Positions 5,600-47,877 of a stretch of DNA of 64,000 nucleotides are shown here, piece by piece (positions within the stretch are counted from its first letter, which is position 1; each line of letters starts with the position of its first letter). The stretch lies in the NCBI GenBank assembly GCA_017864995.1, contig GCA_017864995.1_4097.1. One strand, 5' to 3'. Made by a program: the position numbers and the translations under genes. The notes under the pieces are model-generated. The model saw only the letters and a list, made by a program, of their open reading frames with translations, searched no databases and had not been told where the DNA came from. The stretch comes from a phage.

Positions 5600-5629
5600 T
5601 TGGGACAACGCTGAAAAGCATGATATAAT
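5600..5629 (+). promoter_or_regulatory. sigma70-type promoter (TTGGGA ... TATAAT)
   Basis: TTGGGAcaacgctgaaaagcatgaTATAAT; same architecture as the promoter at 10015. Confidence 0.45.
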
Positions 5630-10014: not shown

Positions 10015-10141
<127 letters not shown>

Positions 10142-10148
10142 CCAAAAT

Positions 10149-10249
<101 letters not shown>

Positions 10250-10251
10250 CC

Positions 10252-10412
<161 letters not shown>

Positions 10413-10416
<4 letters not shown>

Positions 10417-10573
10417 CACATGAAGAATGGATGAATGACATTAATTTTAGATATTCGGGTATCGGTAAATGGCTAAAGTATCATTGGGAATTCATTTCAG
10501 AGCCACATCTGTATGATAAACTTATCAACGATCCAGCATATGAAATGTACTTAATTGAACTACTGGTACGAAC

Positions 10574-10577
<4 letters not shown>
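10413..10577 (+). CDS. hypothetical small protein, MTHEEW family (copy 2)
   Basis: 54 aa ORF; ATGA overlap with copy 1; tandem duplicate. Confidence 0.5.
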
Positions 10578-10745
<168 letters not shown>

Positions 10746-10746
10746 G

Positions 10747-11200
<454 letters not shown>

Positions 11201-11228
11201 GTATCTTAATAACAGAAGGTATATTGAA

Positions 11229-11468
11229 ATGAGTAAGTATTTTGTGAGTTATAGTTATAATGTATCACAAAAGGTTCCACGTGGTGATGGAATGGGCTGG
11301 TCATATGATACATATACTTTAAATGAGTCATGTATCATCGAATTGCAAGAAAAAGACCTTGACATTTTAAAAATCAAACAATATATTCTTGATGTTGAAT
11401 TGGCACATCGTACCGACAACTGTCCAGATGTAAACAACGTCAACATCTTAGTACTAACCAAAGTATAA
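11229..11468 (+). CDS. hypothetical protein
   Basis: Track ORF 11199 trimmed to ATG 11229 with GAAGG SD. Confidence 0.55.
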   Translation: MSKYFVSYSYNVSQKVPRGDGMGWSYDTYTLNESCIIELQEKDLDILKIKQYILDVELAHRTDNCPDVNNVNILVLTKV

Positions 11469-11474
11469 GATAAA

Positions 11475-11508
<34 letters not shown>

Positions 11509-11514
11509 GAATTC

Positions 11515-11860
11515 CACAATCAGACGTATATGGTGTAAGTTACGTCGATGTAATCCAGAACAAGATCTCTGGTACTCTAGGAAGTGGTGAATGTTAACCT
11601 AGACGGGTTTGATAATTGGACGATAGGCAATTATTACTTGACTAGCAGGTTTAAACTAGAGGTGACAGTCCTTTACCAAACTGGAAAACCGGATGGACTT
11701 TTATTTAAAAGGGTAAGGCGTGGAAATATGTTTACAGTAGTTGCTTTTAGTAGCCTGTACGCCCCACGTCAAGGTAGCCGAAAGGCAAGTTAAAACGGGT
11801 GGTTATAAAGCTGAATTAACAGCGGCGTTTAAAAGCGTCACCATCCATTTTTTTAATTAA
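11515..11860 (+). ncRNA. candidate structured non-coding RNA (function unknown)
   Basis: About 350 nt driven by promoter at 11480, visibly higher GC than flanks, no convincing ORF (only a GTG-start 69 aa ORF of odd composition), multiple stems; lies in the tRNA region. Confidence 0.3.
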
Positions 11861-11870
11861 AGTTGGTGAT

Positions 11871-12690
<820 letters not shown>

Positions 12691-12703
12691 ATAGGAAATT
12701 AAA

Positions 12704-12889
12704 GTGCAACTTTTAATTCTTTCAATATTGTATATTATTATAATGGTTCCGATATCAATACGTTTAATTACACTTGAACGATTTTTATCGAAACATGGAA
12801 ATAGATCTATGATCTTTGTACCAATCGGGTTGATATTGTTTGGTATATTTTCATTTATAATGGGAATTAACGCTACATTCATTTCATAG
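12704..12889 (+). CDS. small hydrophobic membrane protein
   Basis: 61 aa ORF with GTG start; two hydrophobic segments. Confidence 0.4.
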   Translation: MQLLILSILYIIIMVPISIRLITLERFLSKHGNRSMIFVPIGLILFGIFSFIMGINATFIS

Positions 12890-12898
12890 GAAACAAAT

Positions 12899-13566
<668 letters not shown>

Positions 13567-13585
13567 AGAGGTACTTCGAGTATGC

Positions 13586-13916
<331 letters not shown>

Positions 13917-13967
13917 GCCTCCCCTCAATGCGAAAGAGTATGGAGACTTGTTGGTTATCTTACTTCT

Positions 13968-14050
<83 letters not shown>

Positions 14051-14053
14051 TCA

Positions 14054-14126
<73 letters not shown>

Positions 14127-14143
14127 CAAAATAAAGGTACACT

Positions 14144-19133: not shown

Positions 19134-20291
19134 TTATGCGTTATAACCAACAATGACTACAGTACAGCCAAATGGTTCAACAACTTTTAATACAACATTA
19201 TCATCGGCATCTAGTTCAACTTCACTTAGTACAACGTGATTGTCTTCAGCATAGACTTGAACTTGTGGGAGGATTTTACCATGTTCACTGGCAGGAATGG
19301 ACAGTGTGTACATAGAATCACCATCATCTACCCAATCACTATCAGTATACGTGTTGTGATATGGAGTGGTGTGTAAGGTTTTACCAATAATACTCAATGA
19401 GATTGGAGCATCATCAGTTTGGTACACAGTAATATTACCGCTAGGATCTACAATGAGGTCTACTCCAATTTGGAATAAATCACCACTGTATGCTTGTAGA
19501 GCAAGATACTCACCACGCTCATGCACAGTAGCTGGTACAGTTGCCATGTACATACCATCGGACGTGTACTCAAACTGAGATAGAAGTACTGAAGTAACGA
19601 AGTCAATATCTTCGCCGCTTTCTAGTATATCAAATTCAATAGTTTTGGTATTATATATGTCAGAAGTGAGTATGATGGTTCCTTTACCGGATTGAGTAAT
19701 TGGATCAACTGGAATACTAAAAACATCATCAATTATTTCAGTAGTGAAGTACTCGGTTCCGTCAGGAAGTATAACGGTAATACGCATTCCAGTTGTATCA
19801 ATGGCTGAACCTGCGTTGAATAGGCGACCACCTACCAAATCATCACCTACGAACGTTGGGAACATAAGGATGTTGTCTATATCTCTATCTATAATCCCGC
19901 ATTCAGGGGTGTACATATTATATAGTGTTTGTGAACTACCTAGAATTGTTTTGTGCAAAAGAAACTTATAAACAAACCCAGTAGGATCTGATTCAAGTTT
20001 AGCATCTGAGTATCCTCTTACGAAAAAAGAGTTCTTTCTTATTTCACTTAGGATTTGGTCATTAGTTTTGTTGTAGTTTAATTGATATCCTTGTATATCC
20101 TTTGTTGTAATTTGTACTTTACGATAAATTACATTACTTACAGGATCAAGTAAATCATATAATCTATGGCTTCTCTGACGATAGATTCGAACATTTTTGA
20201 GTTTAGTCCCATCGTTGAGAATTGCACCATCGACTACATATCCACATTCACCGAACTTATATTGTCCAGCAGCAGCAATCGATCTTGACAT
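19134..20291 (-). CDS. hypothetical protein (385 aa; possibly virion-associated)
   Basis: Only long minus-strand ORF in the first 51 kb; SD GGAGGG upstream; TATAAT/ATAAATA-rich upstream region. Confidence 0.7.
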   Translation of the reverse strand: MSRSIAAAGQYKFGECGYVVDGAILNDGTKLKNVRIYRQRSHRLYDLLDPVSNVIYRKVQITTKDIQGYQLNYNKTNDQILSEIRKNSFFVRGYSDAKLESDPTGFVYKFLLHKTILGSSQTLYNMYTPECGIIDRDIDNILMFPTFVGDDLVGGRLFNAGSAIDTTGMRITVILPDGTEYFTTEIIDDVFSIPVDPITQSGKGTIILTSDIYNTKTIEFDILESGEDIDFVTSVLLSQFEYTSDGMYMATVPATVHERGEYLALQAYSGDLFQIGVDLIVDPSGNITVYQTDDAPISLSIIGKTLHTTPYHNTYTDSDWVDDGDSMYTLSIPASEHGKILPQVQVYAEDNHVVLSEVELDADDNVVLKVVEPFGCTVVIVGYNA

Positions 20292-20351
20292 TCATCCCTC
20301 CATTGGTATAATTATTATAACGTATTTATTCTAGATAGGTAAAAAAGCACC

Positions 20352-23051: not shown

Positions 23052-23473
23052 GGGGATACAATAAGATTTGTATTTTTGTATTTTTAGTTTGTGCAATCAA
23101 TACATTTGGATATTACTGTACTGAAAACAACATTTCATATGGTTTAAATCCTTTGTGGTTTACAATTGCCAATGTAGCACAAATTGGTATTGCTGTTATG
23201 TCTGCACTTATGTTCTGTCCAATTGTCACTATGGATACTGATCATGAAAGGCTTGGATTTATCCGTGATACTGGAGACGAACCTTACAGTAGATTGATTG
23301 TGTTGTATCCATTTATTGTTATTTTAGGTACTAACATCCAACTTGGGTCTTTATCTAATAGTGTTACTTCAGCAGCCATTACAGTCTTTGCATTCACATT
23401 TTTTATGGTACACAAATCAGTACTCAAATGGCACATCACCAAAATGGCAGAGAAAGGTACGGAAAACAGTTGA
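23048..23473 (+). CDS. polytopic membrane protein
   Basis: 141 aa ORF with several hydrophobic segments; ATGA overlap. Confidence 0.6.
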   Translation: MRGYNKICIFVFLVCAINTFGYYCTENNISYGLNPLWFTIANVAQIGIAVMSALMFCPIVTMDTDHERLGFIRDTGDEPYSRLIVLYPFIVILGTNIQLGSLSNSVTSAAITVFAFTFFMVHKSVLKWHITKMAEKGTENS

Positions 23474-23532
23474 CGTGAGTTATTGAGTCATATATAATTA
23501 TTACATCAAAACTGGGAAATGGTAAGGAACTT

Positions 23533-23784
23533 ATGAACATCGATAAGGTCAAAGAACTTAGTGAAGCACTAATTAAGAACGAAGAAGCTTGTGAAGAACT
23601 TCGCAGTACTATCAAAGTTGAGTACGCACGTCTTCAAGCTATGCTTCAGGAATCCGAATGGGTTGTAACTAAATCCATCGAAGCTATCTATAAGGATATC
23701 GAATCCCTTTTCAATAAGAAAAGTAAGTTTGAATCTGATTCATATAACAAGCGTAAAGAATTGAATTCAGTACTCGGTATCTAA
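23533..23784 (+). CDS. hypothetical protein
   Basis: 83 aa ORF. Confidence 0.6.
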   Translation: MNIDKVKELSEALIKNEEACEELRSTIKVEYARLQAMLQESEWVVTKSIEAIYKDIESLFNKKSKFESDSYNKRKELNSVLGI

Positions 23785-23858
23785 AAGTATTTGACTTAAC
23801 CAATAACATGGAGTACAATGTGCTCCTACTTTAATCAAAATCCTAAAAGGAAAACATT

Positions 23859-24119
23859 ATGAAATCTATCCTCGTTGCTGTAAACCTGGTTGCTTCCCCA
23901 TCTTTCAACTTCAAACAAGTTGTTGCTGATAATCTGAAGAACATTTGCCCTAACGCTGAATTGACTTTCTGTGTGTTTGATTCAGAAAAAGTAACAACTG
24001 TTGATCTAAACTATCTTTTGAACGAAGTACAAAGTATTTCTGGTGAAAGTAATTTGGAAGTACTGAACTCCGTTGCTGATGACTATGATGATACACTTGT
24101 AATTTCGGAGAAATTCTAA
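23859..24119 (+). CDS. hypothetical protein
   Basis: 86 aa ORF; SD AAAGGAAA upstream. Confidence 0.6.
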   Translation: MKSILVAVNLVASPSFNFKQVVADNLKNICPNAELTFCVFDSEKVTTVDLNYLLNEVQSISGESNLEVLNSVADDYDDTLVISEKF

Positions 24120-24124
24120 ATCCA

Positions 24125-24544
24125 ATGCTTAGATTTATACATTACTTAATCAGTAAGGTTTTTGGGTATCAAACTGTGGAGGACAAGGCTAATCTAGCAC
24201 ACAAAATCTTCACAGCTTTGTGTTCTGGTGATTATCCTGTATTGAATAAGTACTGTAAATCTAAAGCATGTATTGACATAATGGCACTTCGTATATATGA
24301 GTGCCAGTTCAATAGATACAATTTTTACCAGTACAGATATGATAAAGATGATTTTGATAGCATTGTAATGCTAAAGAATTTATGTAATAATAAAAAGAAT
24401 ATTCATATATCTGAATTTGTTGCATTGTATTTTTATTTAAAAAGTTCATTGTATATGAATTCAATGCAACGATTTGATACTAGAATTAATGTATTCAACG
24501 ATAAAGAATTTTATATCTATGATAAATTTTTAGATAAGGTTTAA
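24125..24544 (+). CDS. hypothetical protein
   Basis: 139 aa ORF. Confidence 0.55.
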   Translation: MLRFIHYLISKVFGYQTVEDKANLAHKIFTALCSGDYPVLNKYCKSKACIDIMALRIYECQFNRYNFYQYRYDKDDFDSIVMLKNLCNNKKNIHISEFVALYFYLKSSLYMNSMQRFDTRINVFNDKEFYIYDKFLDKV

Positions 24545-24545
24545 T

Positions 24546-25043
24546 ATGACGACTGTTTATATTGATAAACGCTTGGGAGTATTACTTACTGATTCAAAAG
24601 TGACATCAACTGAGCAACGTTCATTTTTGAACCTATTCCCGTTGAAGCCAAAACTTAGTTATGGTGTAGTTTCACAAAAAACATTGTATGTACACGACCG
24701 ACTGTTTAGTGCTTGCGGTGAAGTTAGTGAAATTAACAAAGTACTGAGATACTTGATTTCACAAGAGACTGTGATACCAGACCGCAAGGCGAGTTGTCAC
24801 TGTGTTCTTGTGTCAAAAGATTACATCATTCACTTAATCGTTAATAAGGGTAAGTTTACCAAGAAGATTGATTATCTCCATAATGATTATACATTCTTTA
24901 TGGGTAGTGGTGGTGAATACATGCTTGATGCAGCAGTACATGAAGAGTATAATACTCTTCTTGATAAGGTATTTGATACCTTCATGGATGTTCATAACCA
25001 TGATATCTATACCGATGATAATATTAATGTATACCGTTTTTGA
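24546..25043 (+). CDS. hypothetical protein
   Basis: 165 aa ORF. Confidence 0.6.
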   Translation: MTTVYIDKRLGVLLTDSKVTSTEQRSFLNLFPLKPKLSYGVVSQKTLYVHDRLFSACGEVSEINKVLRYLISQETVIPDRKASCHCVLVSKDYIIHLIVNKGKFTKKIDYLHNDYTFFMGSGGEYMLDAAVHEEYNTLLDKVFDTFMDVHNHDIYTDDNINVYRF

Positions 25044-25065
25044 TTTCATTCATTAGGAGAAGTAA

Positions 25066-26031
25066 GTGAAAAAGCTTGATTTAAATGCAATTTCTGAAGA
25101 AGTACTGGATGAGTGTTTTGCTAGTGAAGAAGTCAACGTATTAGAGGCTCTTGATTCCGTCGAAGAAGAAGAACATGACGGTCACAAGTTTGAGAAACCA
25201 AAAACAGGTATCAGCTTAACTCGCCCTAAAGGGATAACGAATGAAATGCTCATCCAAGCAGTGCGTGATGGTATTGACGTTGAAAAGAACATTGACCTTT
25301 TGGTTCGCTACAACTATCCAATGGTAGTAAGTGTTGCACGTAAGTGTACATGTTTTATCCCATTTGAAGATAAGATTTCTTATGGTGTTGAAGGTTTAAT
25401 GCGAGCAATTCATACGTTCGACACTACCAAAAATGTTAAGTTCATTACATATGCAACAACAACTGTGTACATGACAATCTATAACGAAAGTGCAGATGCT
25501 AATTATCTAGTGCATTTCCCACGTTATATGAGTGTTAATAACATTTATGTGAAACGTTGTGTAGAAGAGTATCAAAGGAAACATGGTAAATACCCAACTC
25601 CTGAGATGGTGTCAAAAGAGACTGGTATTGAGATTCAACACGTTAAGAATTGTCTAACTTACAGTAACACTTATGTAGCATTGAATATGAAAATGAGTAA
25701 TGATTCAGAAAGTACATTATCTGACATTGTTACTTCAGTTGAACCTGATTACAACTTAGGCGTAGAAACTGTCAGTACCCCACTGGTACAAAGTATTGCA
25801 GAAATGATGAGTAACCTATCTGCCAAAGACCGTGAATTGATTGAACGTGTACATGGTATTGGTTCTTATTCTGAACCCGAAACGCTACGAGAAATCATTG
25901 AGAGTGGTTTTGAAGATGAGAAGGGTAAGGTCATGACTGCTCGTTCTTCATTGCACCGTAAGTACTCTGAAGCAATGGAACGACTGCGTAAGATGGTTAA
26001 GACAAAAGGTTATGAGTTCGAAGATTTTTAA
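25066..26031 (+). CDS. RNA polymerase sigma factor, sigma-70 family (phage-encoded)
   Basis: Region-2-like LVRYNYPMVVSVARKC...GVEGLMRAIHTFDTTKNVKFITYATTTV and region-4-like LIERVHGIGSYSEPETLREI; GTG start with GGAGAAG SD. Confidence 0.7.
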   Translation: MKKLDLNAISEEVLDECFASEEVNVLEALDSVEEEEHDGHKFEKPKTGISLTRPKGITNEMLIQAVRDGIDVEKNIDLLVRYNYPMVVSVARKCTCFIPFEDKISYGVEGLMRAIHTFDTTKNVKFITYATTTVYMTIYNESADANYLVHFPRYMSVNNIYVKRCVEEYQRKHGKYPTPEMVSKETGIEIQHVKNCLTYSNTYVALNMKMSNDSESTLSDIVTSVEPDYNLGVETVSTPLVQSIAEMMSNLSAKDRELIERVHGIGSYSEPETLREIIESGFEDEKGKVMTARSSLHRKYSEAMERLRKMVKTKGYEFEDF

Positions 26032-26038
26032 GATTAAA

Positions 26039-26065
26039 GGGTTGACTTCGGTCAACCCTTTTTTT
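26039..26065 (+). terminator. rho-independent terminator (PeSL-type hairpin without -10 box)
   Basis: gggttgac-TTCG-gtcaaccc followed by TTTTTTT; same hairpin as the terminator-promoter cassettes downstream. Confidence 0.7.
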
Positions 26066-26599
26066 ATGGGACAAATTTATTAATGGTGATACAATGATCT
26101 ATGTACAATCACAATGACAGTACTGGTACTGACAATCTTCCCCTACTTCACTTGAAAATGTAAAGGATAGATGAGCTTTTCATTGTAGCGAACAGCAAAA
26201 GAAACCCGTTAGATGTGGGCATAGTTTGAACCCCTCACGGCAATGCGGCTGTATAAAGAACCACGTTAGGATAGCTGGTGGTTCCTCGATAGACATATAA
26301 GGATAACACCTTACGAATTATCTAAGGGAGAGTTATCGAATTTTGTACAGGAAAGTTGCGTCCAAAATTTGAGTACTCACATTAAGTATTTGATTGCATA
26401 GATACTTAATGAAGATACACTATGTTTAAAAGTGTAGACCGTCATATGAAACTGAAGTAGAGAGAAACAGGATGACCCGCTTTCGCACTCGTTATGAGTA
26501 ATCTTCAATGCAATAGCTCTGATACCATCAGCGTCAAATTTCCCTCCGTGCGGGGGGAAGAAAAATCCCTTCCTCAAATCCCGTCAATATTAAAAGTCC
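26066..26599 (+). other. ORF-free island, candidate structured RNA
   Basis: About 530 bp with no plausible ORF on either strand in an otherwise gene-dense region; more GC-rich by eye, many local inverted repeats. Confidence 0.3.
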
Positions 26600-28428: not shown

Positions 28429-28456
28429 TTGACATAAGATATCAGTACTGTATAAT
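28429..28456 (+). promoter_or_regulatory. early promoter (TTGACA-16-TATAAT)
   Basis: ttgacataagatatcagtactgtataatgtttatatcaa. Confidence 0.6.
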
Positions 28457-32523: not shown

Positions 32524-32756
32524 TATTGAGTTTTGTAGTTGCATTATTGTTTATGTTCTACCCTACACTAGTAGCAGTAGCCACTAAACGAAAGCTGGTG
32601 GATATCACTACTGTATTCTTGCTAAACGTGGCACTCGTTCTAGTGTCTATTATCATTCCCGTGAGCTTTACGGTTATTGATATGGCATCTGTATTACTAT
32701 TCGTCTTCAGTTATCTTATGCTTATTGAAGAAAAACCTGTTGACAAACGTTTGTAG
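32514..32756 (+). CDS. small membrane protein
   Basis: 80 aa ORF with two hydrophobic segments. Confidence 0.5.
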   Translation: MYLVLSFVVALLFMFYPTLVAVATKRKLVDITTVFLLNVALVLVSIIIPVSFTVIDMASVLLFVFSYLMLIEEKPVDKRL

Positions 32757-32767
32757 TACTGTATAAT
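32740..32767 (+). promoter_or_regulatory. early promoter (TTGACA-16-TATAAT) with palindromic spacer
   Basis: ttgacaaacgtttgtagtactgtataatgg; spacer contains 12-bp palindrome acaaacgtttgt. Confidence 0.55.
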
Positions 32768-34330: not shown

Positions 34331-34522
34331 ATGTTGATTTATCAATGTGATAACATTCGTGTTATGCAGCATCCCTACTTACAAATCTTTGATGTGCAGC
34401 AGTATATGGAAGGTGATGATCCAAGAACCTATGGTCGTAAGTATGATTACTTCACTGTAAAGCAGTGTCATAACATCAAAGAAGTACGACAATTAGTTCA
34501 AGAACTTCAAAATAAAGGTTGA
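34331..34522 (+). CDS. hypothetical small protein
   Basis: Track ORF 34301 trimmed to ATG 34331 (SD GAGGA). Confidence 0.45.
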   Translation: MLIYQCDNIRVMQHPYLQIFDVQQYMEGDDPRTYGRKYDYFTVKQCHNIKEVRQLVQELQNKG

Positions 34523-34548
34523 CTTCGGTCAACCTTTTTTGTTATAAT
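34517..34548 (+). promoter_or_regulatory. terminator-promoter cassette (PeSL-like)
   Basis: Hairpin ggttgac-TTCG-gtcaacc with T-run; TTGACT inside the stem as -35, TATAAT 18 nt downstream. Confidence 0.7.
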
Positions 34549-38108: not shown

Positions 38109-38142
38109 GGGGTTGACTTCAGTCAGCCCTTTGTCGTATAAT
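38109..38142 (+). promoter_or_regulatory. terminator-promoter cassette (PeSL-like)
   Basis: gggttgac-ttca-gtcagccc hairpin; TTGACT at 38113, TATAAT at 38137 (18-nt spacer). Confidence 0.65.
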
Positions 38143-41152: not shown

Positions 41153-41185
41153 GGGTTGACTTCGGTCGGCCCTTTTTGCTATAAT
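41153..41185 (+). promoter_or_regulatory. terminator-promoter cassette (PeSL-like)
   Basis: gggttgac-TTCG-gtcggccc, TTTTT, TATAAT at 41180, conserved leader catttcatcaactactggagg. Confidence 0.7.
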
Positions 41186-45369: not shown

Positions 45370-45783
45370 ATGAAGAAGTGTATCACGTGTAATATTGAAA
45401 AAGACATTAGTGAATTTGGTATAAGAAGTGATACTGGGAAACATAGAAATACATGCAAAGGTTGTAGTAATATTACCAGTAAGAGAACCAGAAATAAAAA
45501 AACTGATGTAAAAACACTTGAAGAAATCAAAAGAAAAAATAAAGATTTCATGACCAGAGTTAAATCATTTTATGGTTGTAGTGTTTGTATGATGAAGTAT
45601 CCAGAATGTTTAGACTTTCACCATCTTGACCCTAATACCAAAGAACATACACCAAGTTCTATGTTCAGTAAAAGTCGAGATGCTATCAAAGATGAAATTC
45701 GAAAGTGTATGATTCTTTGTTCTAATCACCATCGCATGGTACATTCTGGTAGACTATGTTTGATTGAAAGAAAAAAGGGTTGA
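45370..45783 (+). CDS. HNH endonuclease (freestanding, homing-endonuclease-like)
   Basis: CITC...CKGC...LDFHHLDPNTKEH...CMILCSNHHRMVH fits HNH with zinc-binding cysteines; stop codon TGA lies inside the TTGACT of the downstream cassette. Confidence 0.65.
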   Translation: MKKCITCNIEKDISEFGIRSDTGKHRNTCKGCSNITSKRTRNKKTDVKTLEEIKRKNKDFMTRVKSFYGCSVCMMKYPECLDFHHLDPNTKEHTPSSMFSKSRDAIKDEIRKCMILCSNHHRMVHSGRLCLIERKKG

Positions 45784-45809
45784 CTTCGGTCAGCCCTTTT
45801 TGCTATAAT
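45777..45809 (+). promoter_or_regulatory. terminator-promoter cassette (PeSL-like)
   Basis: gggttgac-TTCG-gtcagccc, TTTTT, TATAAT at 45804, leader catttcatcgaaacgagagg. Confidence 0.7.
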
Positions 45810-47844: not shown

Positions 47845-47877
47845 GGGTTGACTTCGGTCGGCCCTTTTTGCTATAAT
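47845..47877 (+). promoter_or_regulatory. terminator-promoter cassette (PeSL-like)
   Basis: gggttgac-TTCG-gtcggccc, TTTTT, TATAAT at 47872, leader tatttcatcaactgatgagg; near-identical to 41153 and 45777. Confidence 0.7.

Follow-up and report, generated by a model that had tools for sequence, protein, structure and literature searches.

Which promoters does a sigma factor read when it is encoded by a phage and has lost several of the residues with which sigma-70 contacts DNA? The question arises from a 64,000-nucleotide stretch of phage DNA (contig GCA_017864995.1_4097.1, here called the window), in which the gene at 25066-26031 was initially annotated as encoding a sigma-70-family factor that may transcribe from TATAAT-box cassettes in an array of RCC1-like genes. 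We find that its product is a divergent full-length member of that family (sigma2-sigma3-sigma4) and that its most likely target is a different set of promoters, a middle class with a -35 hexamer of the phage's own. Across the tested stretch, the window shares 95.8-98.3% identity with nine jumbo Escherichia coli myoviruses of ~354-386 kb, including WPEC5, WPEC3, Ecwhy_1, fEgEco12 and CMSTMSU. It comes not from T4 but from a jumbo E. coli myovirus of ~350-385 kb with fEgEco12, WPEC5 and PBECO4 among its relatives. The view that a phage-encoded, full-length family member is without a T4 counterpart agrees with established knowledge: to our knowledge, T4 itself has no full-length sigma-70-family gene.

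A search against sigma-70 domain profiles, the check named with the initial annotation, bears out the assignment to the family. Pfam Sigma70_r2 (PF04542) matches residues 79-141 with 37.2 bits, above its gathering cut-off of 24, and Sigma70_r3 (PF04539) matches residues 162-224 with 45.4 bits, above its cut-off of 25.3; both profiles also match all 15 members of the clade to which this sigma belongs. PHROG 351, 'RNA polymerase sigma factor', matches the 321-residue protein at E=4.6e-48, and the closest solved structures are those of Mycobacterium tuberculosis SigB/SigA and E. coli RpoS/RpoD (E=1e-17 to 1e-14). Regions 2 and 4 had both been described as recognizable. For region 2 the Pfam match confirms this, whereas region 4 is present but diverged: Pfam Sigma70_r4 (PF04545) has no match in the 321-residue protein and matches weakly in 6 of 15 relatives (best E=3e-5). 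The idea that region 4 is missing, suggested by that absent match, is ruled out by three results. Alignment of the family profile with 28 cellular sigma factors by hhalign covers residues 72-309, regions 4.1-4.2 included (probability 100%, E=8.8e-42). The AlphaFold model has three confident helical domains (residues 51-145, 153-198 and 238-315), the C-terminal one being helical with pLDDT 76-89, and a Foldseek comparison of the whole model with sigma-S and sigma-A chains gives E=2.4e-10 over 291 columns.

On model scores, DNA-reading residues and regions 1.1/1.2, the protein is not a group 1 or group 2 sigma of the RpoD or RpoS kind. Its best NCBIfam match, RpoD_Cterm, scores 95.5 bits, far under the cut-off of 354, and RpoS scores 79.8 bits where 378.7 is required. 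Neither Pfam region 1.1 (PF03979) nor region 1.2 (PF00140) has a match in the protein, from which region 1.1 and the non-conserved region are absent; a short segment resembling region 1.2 forms a helix at residues 59-67 of the AlphaFold model. The profiles of gp55-type late sigma factors (PHROG 234 and 12791) do not match either, PHROG 351 being the only PHROG match.

We mapped individual residues by alignment to E. coli RpoD, with the register confirmed by hhalign. Scaffold residues are kept (D403, G411, F419, E420 as Asp, F427, Y430 and P453 in sigma-70 numbering), F118, D119, F126 and Y129 being the region 2 equivalents of F419, E420, F427 and Y430. Region 2.2 is partly conserved, with D403 and G411 kept and Q406, E407 and N409 altered. 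Among the tested residues that read the -10, extended -10 and -35 elements, only Y430 and R584 are retained. The Trp dyad W433/W434 is T132/T133 in this sigma, and Thr, Ser, Val or Ala across the family; loss of the dyad is a group-3-like trait. Q437, T440 and R441 have become M, Y and N, H455 and E458 correspond to Y154 and V157 within a PRYMSV motif, and in region 4.2 there are family-wide replacements of E585 by Ser, R586 by Ser/Thr, R588 by His and Q589 by Arg. As the residues that read -35 and -10 both differ from those of sigma-70, a simple duplication of host specificity is not expected.

Region 4.2 also carries an eight-residue insertion, GFEDEKGK, located exactly where hhalign places a gap; within the family G281, D284 and G287 are invariant and K288 is nearly so. 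In the AlphaFold model, a non-helical loop (residues 280-292) is followed by a long helix (293-313), the predicted recognition helix, in which R293, S294, S295, H297 and R298 correspond to R584, E585, R586, R588 and Q589 of sigma-70. An ungapped register for region 4.2, obtained with HMMER and in one MAFFT run, was rejected, as hhalign and AlphaFold favour the insertion. The missing Trp dyad and the insertion are common to all clade members, and ~17 more distant representative clusters carry all these signatures, the 4.2 insertion included.

Three promoter classes are visible in the assembled complete genome of the relative fEgEco12, to which the following counts refer. The early class, TTGACA-N16-18-TAYAAT or in short TTGACA-N17-TATAAT, has 37 sites compared with 1.4 expected. 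The middle class, G[AG]GACA-N16-18-TAYAAT and in full TG(G/A)GAC-N17-TGnTATAAT, has 18 compared with 1.0 expected, and all 55 early and middle sites lie on the + strand. The dinucleotide preceding GACA has a bimodal distribution (TT 37, GG+GA 18, each other 0-4), and 16 of the 18 middle sites, versus 8 of the 37 early ones, carry a TGn extension. When the hexamers lying 17 nucleotides upstream of TAYAAT were scanned without bias, the most enriched were TGAGAC (x106) and TGGGAC (x59); an early-class variant, CTTGCA, was also enriched (x59). Middle promoters were found upstream of gp32 (two sites), primase, the topoisomerase large subunit, exonuclease, protease and others, in front of four copies of a structured RNA and, as TGGGAC-N17-TATAAT, ~50 nucleotides upstream of ATG 191073 of a gp55-type late sigma gene. 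The late class, (A/T)TAAATA, lies 17-61 nucleotides upstream of ~30 of 45 structural genes, and the 375 kb contain the exact T4 late box TATAAATA at only 9 places, 8 of which lie just upstream of genes such as those for the major capsid and baseplate. The same middle architecture has been described in phage CBB as 'Promoter 1', TG(A/G)AAC-N17-TGnTATAAT, in a list that includes Porf_244 (Table S6), the promoter of CBB's gp55-like gene (PMC5259590).

For these three classes, three sigma factors are available: host sigma-70, the protein described here and the gp55-like sigma. The middle box occupies the position at which region 4.2 binds, at a fixed spacing of 17 nucleotides, and it departs from TTGACA in its upstream half, the sigma being altered at the corresponding contact positions. 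From clade to clade TTGACA is kept as the early hexamer, in CBB as well (Table S5, PMC5259590). The middle hexamer, in contrast, varies together with the recognition helix: RSSLHRKY in the clade of the window goes with TG(G/A)GAC, RSSIHRKY in G17-like phages with TGGGAT, RSAIHRRY with TGGGAA and AGGGAT, HSTIHRRY with TGGGAT, RGTLHYKF in RaK2-like phages with TTGAAC, and KATLSRRY in CBB, GAP32 and XbC2-like phages with TG(A/G)AAC. Because the middle hexamer shifts with the helix and the early hexamer does not, we infer that the middle class is the most likely target. Enterobacterial hosts share essentially the same sigma-70 region 4.2, so that a phage-encoded reader would be needed for a hexamer that varies. 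The apparent covariation is claimed at the level of clades, where positions 297/298 seem to track it best.

We therefore favour, with moderate confidence, a three-step cascade that would run from host sigma-70 to this sigma and on to the gp55-like sigma. The factor would be made early by the host sigma-70 holoenzyme, replace sigma-70 on the host core polymerase and direct the enzyme to middle promoters of the form TG(G/A)GAC-N17-TATAAT with a TGn extension. The predicted middle regulon would comprise genes for replication and nucleotide metabolism (gp32, primase, topoisomerase and exonuclease), tRNA, the four structured RNAs and the gene for the gp55-type late sigma, which would then read the (A/T)TAAATA promoters of the structural genes and the RCC1 array.

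Several points weigh against this cascade. The -10 element of the middle class is a perfect extended -10 for sigma-70 (TGnTATAAT), yet the phage sigma lacks W433/W434, Q437, T440, H455 and E458; host sigma-70 could thus use the middle promoters through the extended -10 alone. The covariation amounts to ~3 independent hexamer states, with some clades giving one or two promoters, and its sample is small (only six related viral loci were found, and two metagenomic contigs end soon after the sigma gene). In RaK2-like phages the hexamer TTGAAC is close to TTGACA, and the classes are less distinct there. A one-residue rule, pairing R293 with G at hexamer position 4 and K or H with A, failed, as the clade with His293 has TGGGAT. 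Finally, the promoter classes come from a relative that is 97% identical across the tested stretch, and a literature search for experiments on this sigma or its promoters returned annotation-level mentions only.

The first of these points leads to an alternative in which host sigma-70 reads the middle promoters through the extended -10 with the help of a phage activator bound at the TG(G/A)GAC box, an analogue of MotA/AsiA, leaving the phage sigma to serve other promoters or to play a lesser part. In 16 of 18 middle sites the extended -10 is optimal for sigma-70, which fits this arrangement, as does the absence from the phage sigma of the residues with which sigma-70 contacts the TG and -12 positions. 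However, the box lies exactly where region 4.2 would bind, its spacing is fixed and it covaries with the recognition helix of the sigma, none of which favours a separate activator. An early-expressed sigma that is conserved throughout its clade would also be left without a visible promoter class, only three classes having been found. No MotA or AsiA homologue was detected in either genome (phmmer E<=10), a weak negative given that such proteins diverge quickly, and appropriation of the T4 MotA/AsiA type was set aside on this basis. We regard the activator as unlikely.

The cascade can be joined to a broader proposal, namely that a -35 hexamer private to the phage (TGRGAC; for sister clades, TTGAAC or TGAAAC) is recognized by region 4.2 of the sigma, in which the helix-turn-helix bears the conserved loop and the recognition helix co-evolves with the hexamer, and that the regulon of the sigma includes a deeply conserved multi-copy RNA family linked to the sigma gene and absent from Rfam. 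This combined proposal is tentative, and we would place it slightly below an even chance.

The replacement of several canonical DNA-contact residues, together with the changes at Q406, E407 and N409 in region 2.2, would also suit a factor that acts mainly as a competitor or decoy on the host core polymerase, shutting off host transcription with no promoter specificity of its own. Such a role appears highly improbable. The recognition helix is basic and conserved within clades (R293, H297, R298 and K299), Y129, the equivalent of Y430, is kept along with the -11A pocket residues, and a clade whose members are only ~30% identical has kept all three of the DNA-binding domains, which argues for selection on DNA recognition.

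The RCC1 array itself (51221-63995, - strand) consists of head-to-tail paralogues with Pfam RCC1 matches, all with a conserved N terminus, MLPF(A/V)R... Several of its genes seem fused or overlapping in the raw list of open reading frames (ORFs), for example 57029-58417 with 58281-59468 and 60771-62093 with 61996-63072. A DNA-organizing role for RCC1-like proteins has been the subject of speculation in the phAPEC6 paper (PMC7247149). In each cassette, a terminator hairpin, GCCAGTACT..AGTACTGGC, and a T-run are followed at once by GATTAAATATAGTATAAtGAATAAAGGAGG and ATG, the core being made up of the hairpin, GATTAAATATAGTATAAT and a Shine-Dalgarno sequence.

That the sigma reads the TATAAT boxes of these cassettes, as originally proposed, has some points in its favour. 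The boxes are perfect and have no sigma-70 -35, so some non-host specificity is needed. Moreover, TAAATA follows a T in the cassettes and an A or C in 28 of 30 other late promoters; as a sub-variant, the cassettes might conceivably be served by a reader of their own. Against this, the cassettes have no -35 element, no TGRGAC hexamer and no TGn extension, and the hairpin fills the -35 position. TAAATA-N3-TATA is common to the cassettes and to tail-fibre, tail-tube and other structural genes, and the promoter sequences found before tail-fibre genes and further structural genes (ATAAATATAGTATATAT, CTAAATATAaGTATATT, CTAAATAAAGTATAAT and ATAAATACGTTATAAT) are nearly identical to that of the cassettes. 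When scored with a late weight matrix trained on those 30 structural-gene promoters, the RCC1 array excluded, the sites of 13 of 15 RCC1 paralogues rank 26-210 among 707,350 genome positions (top 0.03%). The distance from box to ATG (25-30 nucleotides) is typical of late promoters and falls within the training range. The cassette 'TATAAT' is probably a sequence downstream of a late-type box and not the -10 element. Given that the cassettes match the late class, the proposed connection between sigma and array is unsupported; their reading as -10-only promoters of this sigma was rejected as the leading one on the late-class sequence and matrix ranks, and we consider it very unlikely.

A dedicated late factor also exists. 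The product of fEgEco12 g336, which lies outside the window, is a separate gp55-type sigma (PHROG 12791, E=1.4e-152; PHROG 234, E=1.5e-16) encoded beside gp46/47-like genes, as gene 55 is beside the gp46/47 genes in T4. This protein would be the natural reader of the (A/T)TAAATA class, RCC1 cassettes included. The annotated 5' end of g336 (190974-191912) overlaps its own middle-class promoter (fEgEco12, PP777464.1), and the true start is probably ATG 191073, not 190974. Another fEgEco12 gene, g276 (119214-119546), is annotated as 'putative sigma 54' and does not encode a sigma; its product is a ribosome-hibernation/S30AE-type protein (PF02482, E=2.3e-10).

The position of the sigma gene is that of an early gene: it ends an early operon that has host-consensus promoters and a strong terminator (Table 1). 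Five closely spaced + strand ORFs (23533-26031) make up the unit, the sigma gene coming last, with gaps of <=74 nucleotides among the upstream ORFs and no terminator between them. The window contains 29 TTGACn-N16-18-TAnAAT sites, all on the + strand, and the ~50 kb around the sigma gene are occupied by small + strand genes behind early-type promoter sites, a pattern described for the early region of CBB (PMC5259590).

Table 1 Features of the sigma locus, the RCC1 array and the structured-RNA family. Positions refer to the window unless another genome or locus is named.
Feature	Position	Strand	Description
Sigma factor gene	25066..26031	+	321 residues plus stop codon, GTG start; ORF list, profile searches
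Shine-Dalgarno AGGAG	25055..25059	+	6 nucleotides 5' of GTG start; read from sequence
N-terminal segment, residues 1-50	25066..25215	+	Family-conserved MKKLDLNAISEEVLDECF, then acidic variable linker; AlphaFold pLDDT <50
Short region-1.2-like segment, residues 51-75	25216..25290	+	RPxGxTNExLIxxIRxG; aligns with C-terminal part of cellular region 1.2
Region 2, residues 79-141	25300..25488	+	Pfam PF04542
Region 3, residues 162-224	25549..25737	+	Pfam PF04539; family-invariant PRYMSV motif just N-terminal
Region 4, residues 238-315	25777..26010	+	Diverged from Pfam model; hhalign, AlphaFold, weak r4 matches in 6 of 15 relatives
Insertion GFEDEKGK, residues 281-288	25906..25929	+	Separates the two helices of the 4.2 helix-turn-helix; hhalign gap
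Predicted recognition helix, residues 293-313	25942..26004	+	RSSLHRKYSEAMERLRKMVKT; hhalign, residue map, AlphaFold
Early (host sigma-70 type) promoter	23470..23498	+	TTGACG-17-TATAAT; operon head; 11 of 12 consensus matches
Second early-type promoter	23791..23819	+	TTGACT-17-TACAAT; inside operon; 10 of 12 consensus matches
Four co-oriented ORFs 5' of sigma gene	23533-23784, 23859-24119, 24125-24544, 24546-25043	+	ORF list
Intrinsic terminator closing operon	26036..26068	+	11-base-pair stem, AAAGGGTTGAC-TTCG-GTCAACCCTTT, then T-run
Middle-class promoter	26067..26095	+	TGGGAC-N17-TACAAT, TGa extension; directly after terminator; putative target of sigma
Middle-class promoter	5601..5629	+	TGGGAC-N17-TATAAT, TGa extension; promoter scan
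Middle-class promoter	10016..10044	+	TGGGAC-N17-TATAAT, TGa extension; 11 nucleotides upstream of tRNA-Ser (10055-10144)
ORF-free structured-RNA element	26102..26594	+	~490 nucleotides; faces middle-class promoter 26067-26095; one of four paralogues per genome
RNA paralogues, fEgEco12 (PP777464.1)	59872-60394, 110631-111203, 195739-196241		
RNA copies, related loci	L010 11063-11517, L013 15239-15695, L014 16266-16721, L011 15153-15603		
RNA copies, OU509535.1	162527-163112, 347227-347501, 85139-85629		
RCC1-array cassettes, 8 copies	52363..63208	-	WTAAATA-N3-TATAA; late-class, not assigned to sigma
Individual cassette copies	52363, 54330, 56940, 58228, 59450, 60713, 61943, 63194	-	WTAAATA-N3-TATAA

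The ORF directly upstream of the sigma gene (24546-25043) is co-transcribed with it and encodes 165 residues with a weak likeness to HslV-family peptidases (PHROG 1040 'peptidase HslV family', E=2.8e-6) and no Pfam match; in fEgEco12 this gene is annotated as 'ATP-dependent protease subunit HslV'. Elsewhere in the early region, terminator and promoter are fused in a + strand cassette, GGGTTGACTTCGGTCAxCCC-TTTTTGC-TATAAT, found at 34519-34548, 38113-38142, 41156-41185, 45780-45809 and 47848-47877. The -35 hexamer TTGACT sits within the terminator stem, so the same ~45 nucleotides end one early transcript and start the next. The terminator of the sigma gene (26036-26066) is a decayed copy of this cassette, its -10 now reading TATGGG.

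A promoter of the middle class directly follows the sigma gene in other phages too, in a G17-like locus (with TGGGAT) and in a RaK2-like genome (with TTGAAC). In the clade of the window, as in the G17-like and RaK2-like clades, a copy of the structured RNA lies directly 3' of the sigma gene. The three other fEgEco12 paralogues are 71-80% identical and each has its own middle-class promoter. With a profile made from the four copies, the RNA was detected in all clades tested, always behind the promoter variant of the clade concerned, and BLAST finds it in 62 phage records, mostly unannotated, at 3-5 copies per genome and a length of ~450-500 nucleotides. Between clades that share only 59% identity in the sigma protein, the RNA copy next to the sigma gene shows 96% identity.

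The structure predicted by RNAalifold has 10 helices with 48 pairs, and compensatory double changes are seen at 25 of these pairs. Paired cells make up 93%, compared with 43-53% when the partners were slid; sliding also left only 4-10 pairs with double changes in place of 25, and the observed values were not reached in any of 500 shuffles. No Rfam 15 family matches any copy, tRNA and tmRNA identification also returned nothing, and a literature search found no published description of the family. This covariation supports the RNA as an unannotated structured family, and its promoters suggest that it belongs to the same putative regulon as the sigma.

A few further observations concern promoters and sequence composition elsewhere in the window. 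A tRNA cluster (10016-14127, + strand; Ser-tga, Ser-gct, Met, Asn and two Thr-tgt) is interspersed with four near-identical early promoters, TTGACTAAATAGTTCAGTACTG(T/A)TA(T/A)AAT, at 10748, 11169, 11480 and 12239. Within the + strand early region lies a single structural-protein gene on the - strand (19134-20291). The late-type promoter of this gene, ATAAATACGTTATAA (20315-20329, - strand), stands back-to-back with a perfect early promoter, TTGACA-16-TATAAT (20285-20312, + strand), which overlaps the start of the gene. Across the whole window the palindrome AGTACT is ~9-fold over-represented (184 observed, 19.8 expected) and CAGTACTG ~60-fold (37 observed, 0.6 expected), with the same over-representation in fEgEco12 and in a RaK2-like genome (246 observed, 2.2 expected). 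This palindrome occurs in all reading frames, intergenic DNA, promoter spacers and terminator stems, for example at 28429-28456 and 32740-32767 and in the RCC1-array terminator stems at 56957-63247.

To place the sigma among its relatives, we searched exhaustively and recovered a discrete small clade, with 15 representatives at E<1e-30 followed by a plateau of generic sigma factors near 1e-19. Identity is 99% to the WPEC3/WPEC5 proteins, 59% to G17/PBECO4, ~40% to RaK2 and ~37% to GAP32/CBB. The protein belongs to the jumbo-myovirus sigma clade (PHROG 351; RaK2, GAP32 and the Asteriusvirus group), with full-length matches at 31-99% identity and all of its signatures confirmed in alignments: IPxxDKxxYGxEG, no Trp dyad, PxY(M/L)S, the GxxDxxGK insertion and an S/T-L-x-R-R/K-Y helix.

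The identity of the gene is already known, as the 99%-identical GenBank genes carry the annotation 'RNA polymerase sigma factor' and several papers mention it; the novelty initially ascribed to it was overrated. The fEgEco12 (PMC13070987) and phAPEC6 (PMC7247149) papers mention the sigma at annotation level, the CBB paper places CBB_513 in the predicted early region (PMC5259590), and Iyer et al. report two sigma factors in group 2 jumbo phages, one minimal and the other more complete and RpoD-like (PMC7824862). That phages of this group carry both RpoD-like and gp55-like sigma factors is thus nothing new. The more surprising object is the adjacent RNA family. The promoter class, the templates and the natural variants of helix and hexamer make the role of the sigma directly testable. 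The work could show how giant phages without an RNA polymerase of their own run a three-stage programme on the host enzyme, and it could supply orthogonal sigma/promoter pairs for synthetic biology. If the combined proposal holds, jumbo phages would contain a natural series of such pairs that also controls an RNA family.

Compared with known systems, the nearest are the orthologous sigma factors of PHROG 351 (fEgEco12 g519, phAPEC6, PBECO4/121Q, RaK2, GAP32 and CBB_513), which represent the same gene in the same early-region context with no essential difference; published accounts of them end at domain annotation. The cellular group 1 and 2 sigma factors (the C-terminal half of E. coli RpoD, RpoS, and M. 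tuberculosis SigA/SigB) provide the best sequence and fold matches, with the same domain order (1.2-like, 2, 3, 3.2 linker, 4) and conserved D403, G411, F419, F427, Y430 and P453. The phage protein differs from them in having no region 1.1, non-conserved region or Trp dyad, in the eight-residue loop in 4.2 and in scoring below every NCBIfam cut-off.

In Bacillus phage SPO1, gp28 is a middle-gene sigma made from early host-type promoters that redirects the host core polymerase, and a further phage sigma drives the late genes. If our model is right, the succession here would be alike, from early host-type promoters to a phage middle sigma and then a phage late sigma, with no specific sequence kinship to gp28 beyond the family. 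SPO1 changes both promoter elements. In the jumbo phage a TATAAT-like -10 is kept and the departure from the host pattern is confined to the -35 hexamer; the late step, unlike that of SPO1, uses a factor of the T4 gp55 type. With T4, to which this phage group is distantly related, it shares a T4-type late system, with a gp55-like gene beside gp46/47-like genes and late boxes of the TATAAATA type, and the sigma at 25066-26031 is not a homologue of gp55. T4 performs the equivalent switch to middle promoters with MotA and AsiA. As neither is detectable here, the phage appears to make its middle switch with a complete sigma factor and not by remodelling sigma-70.

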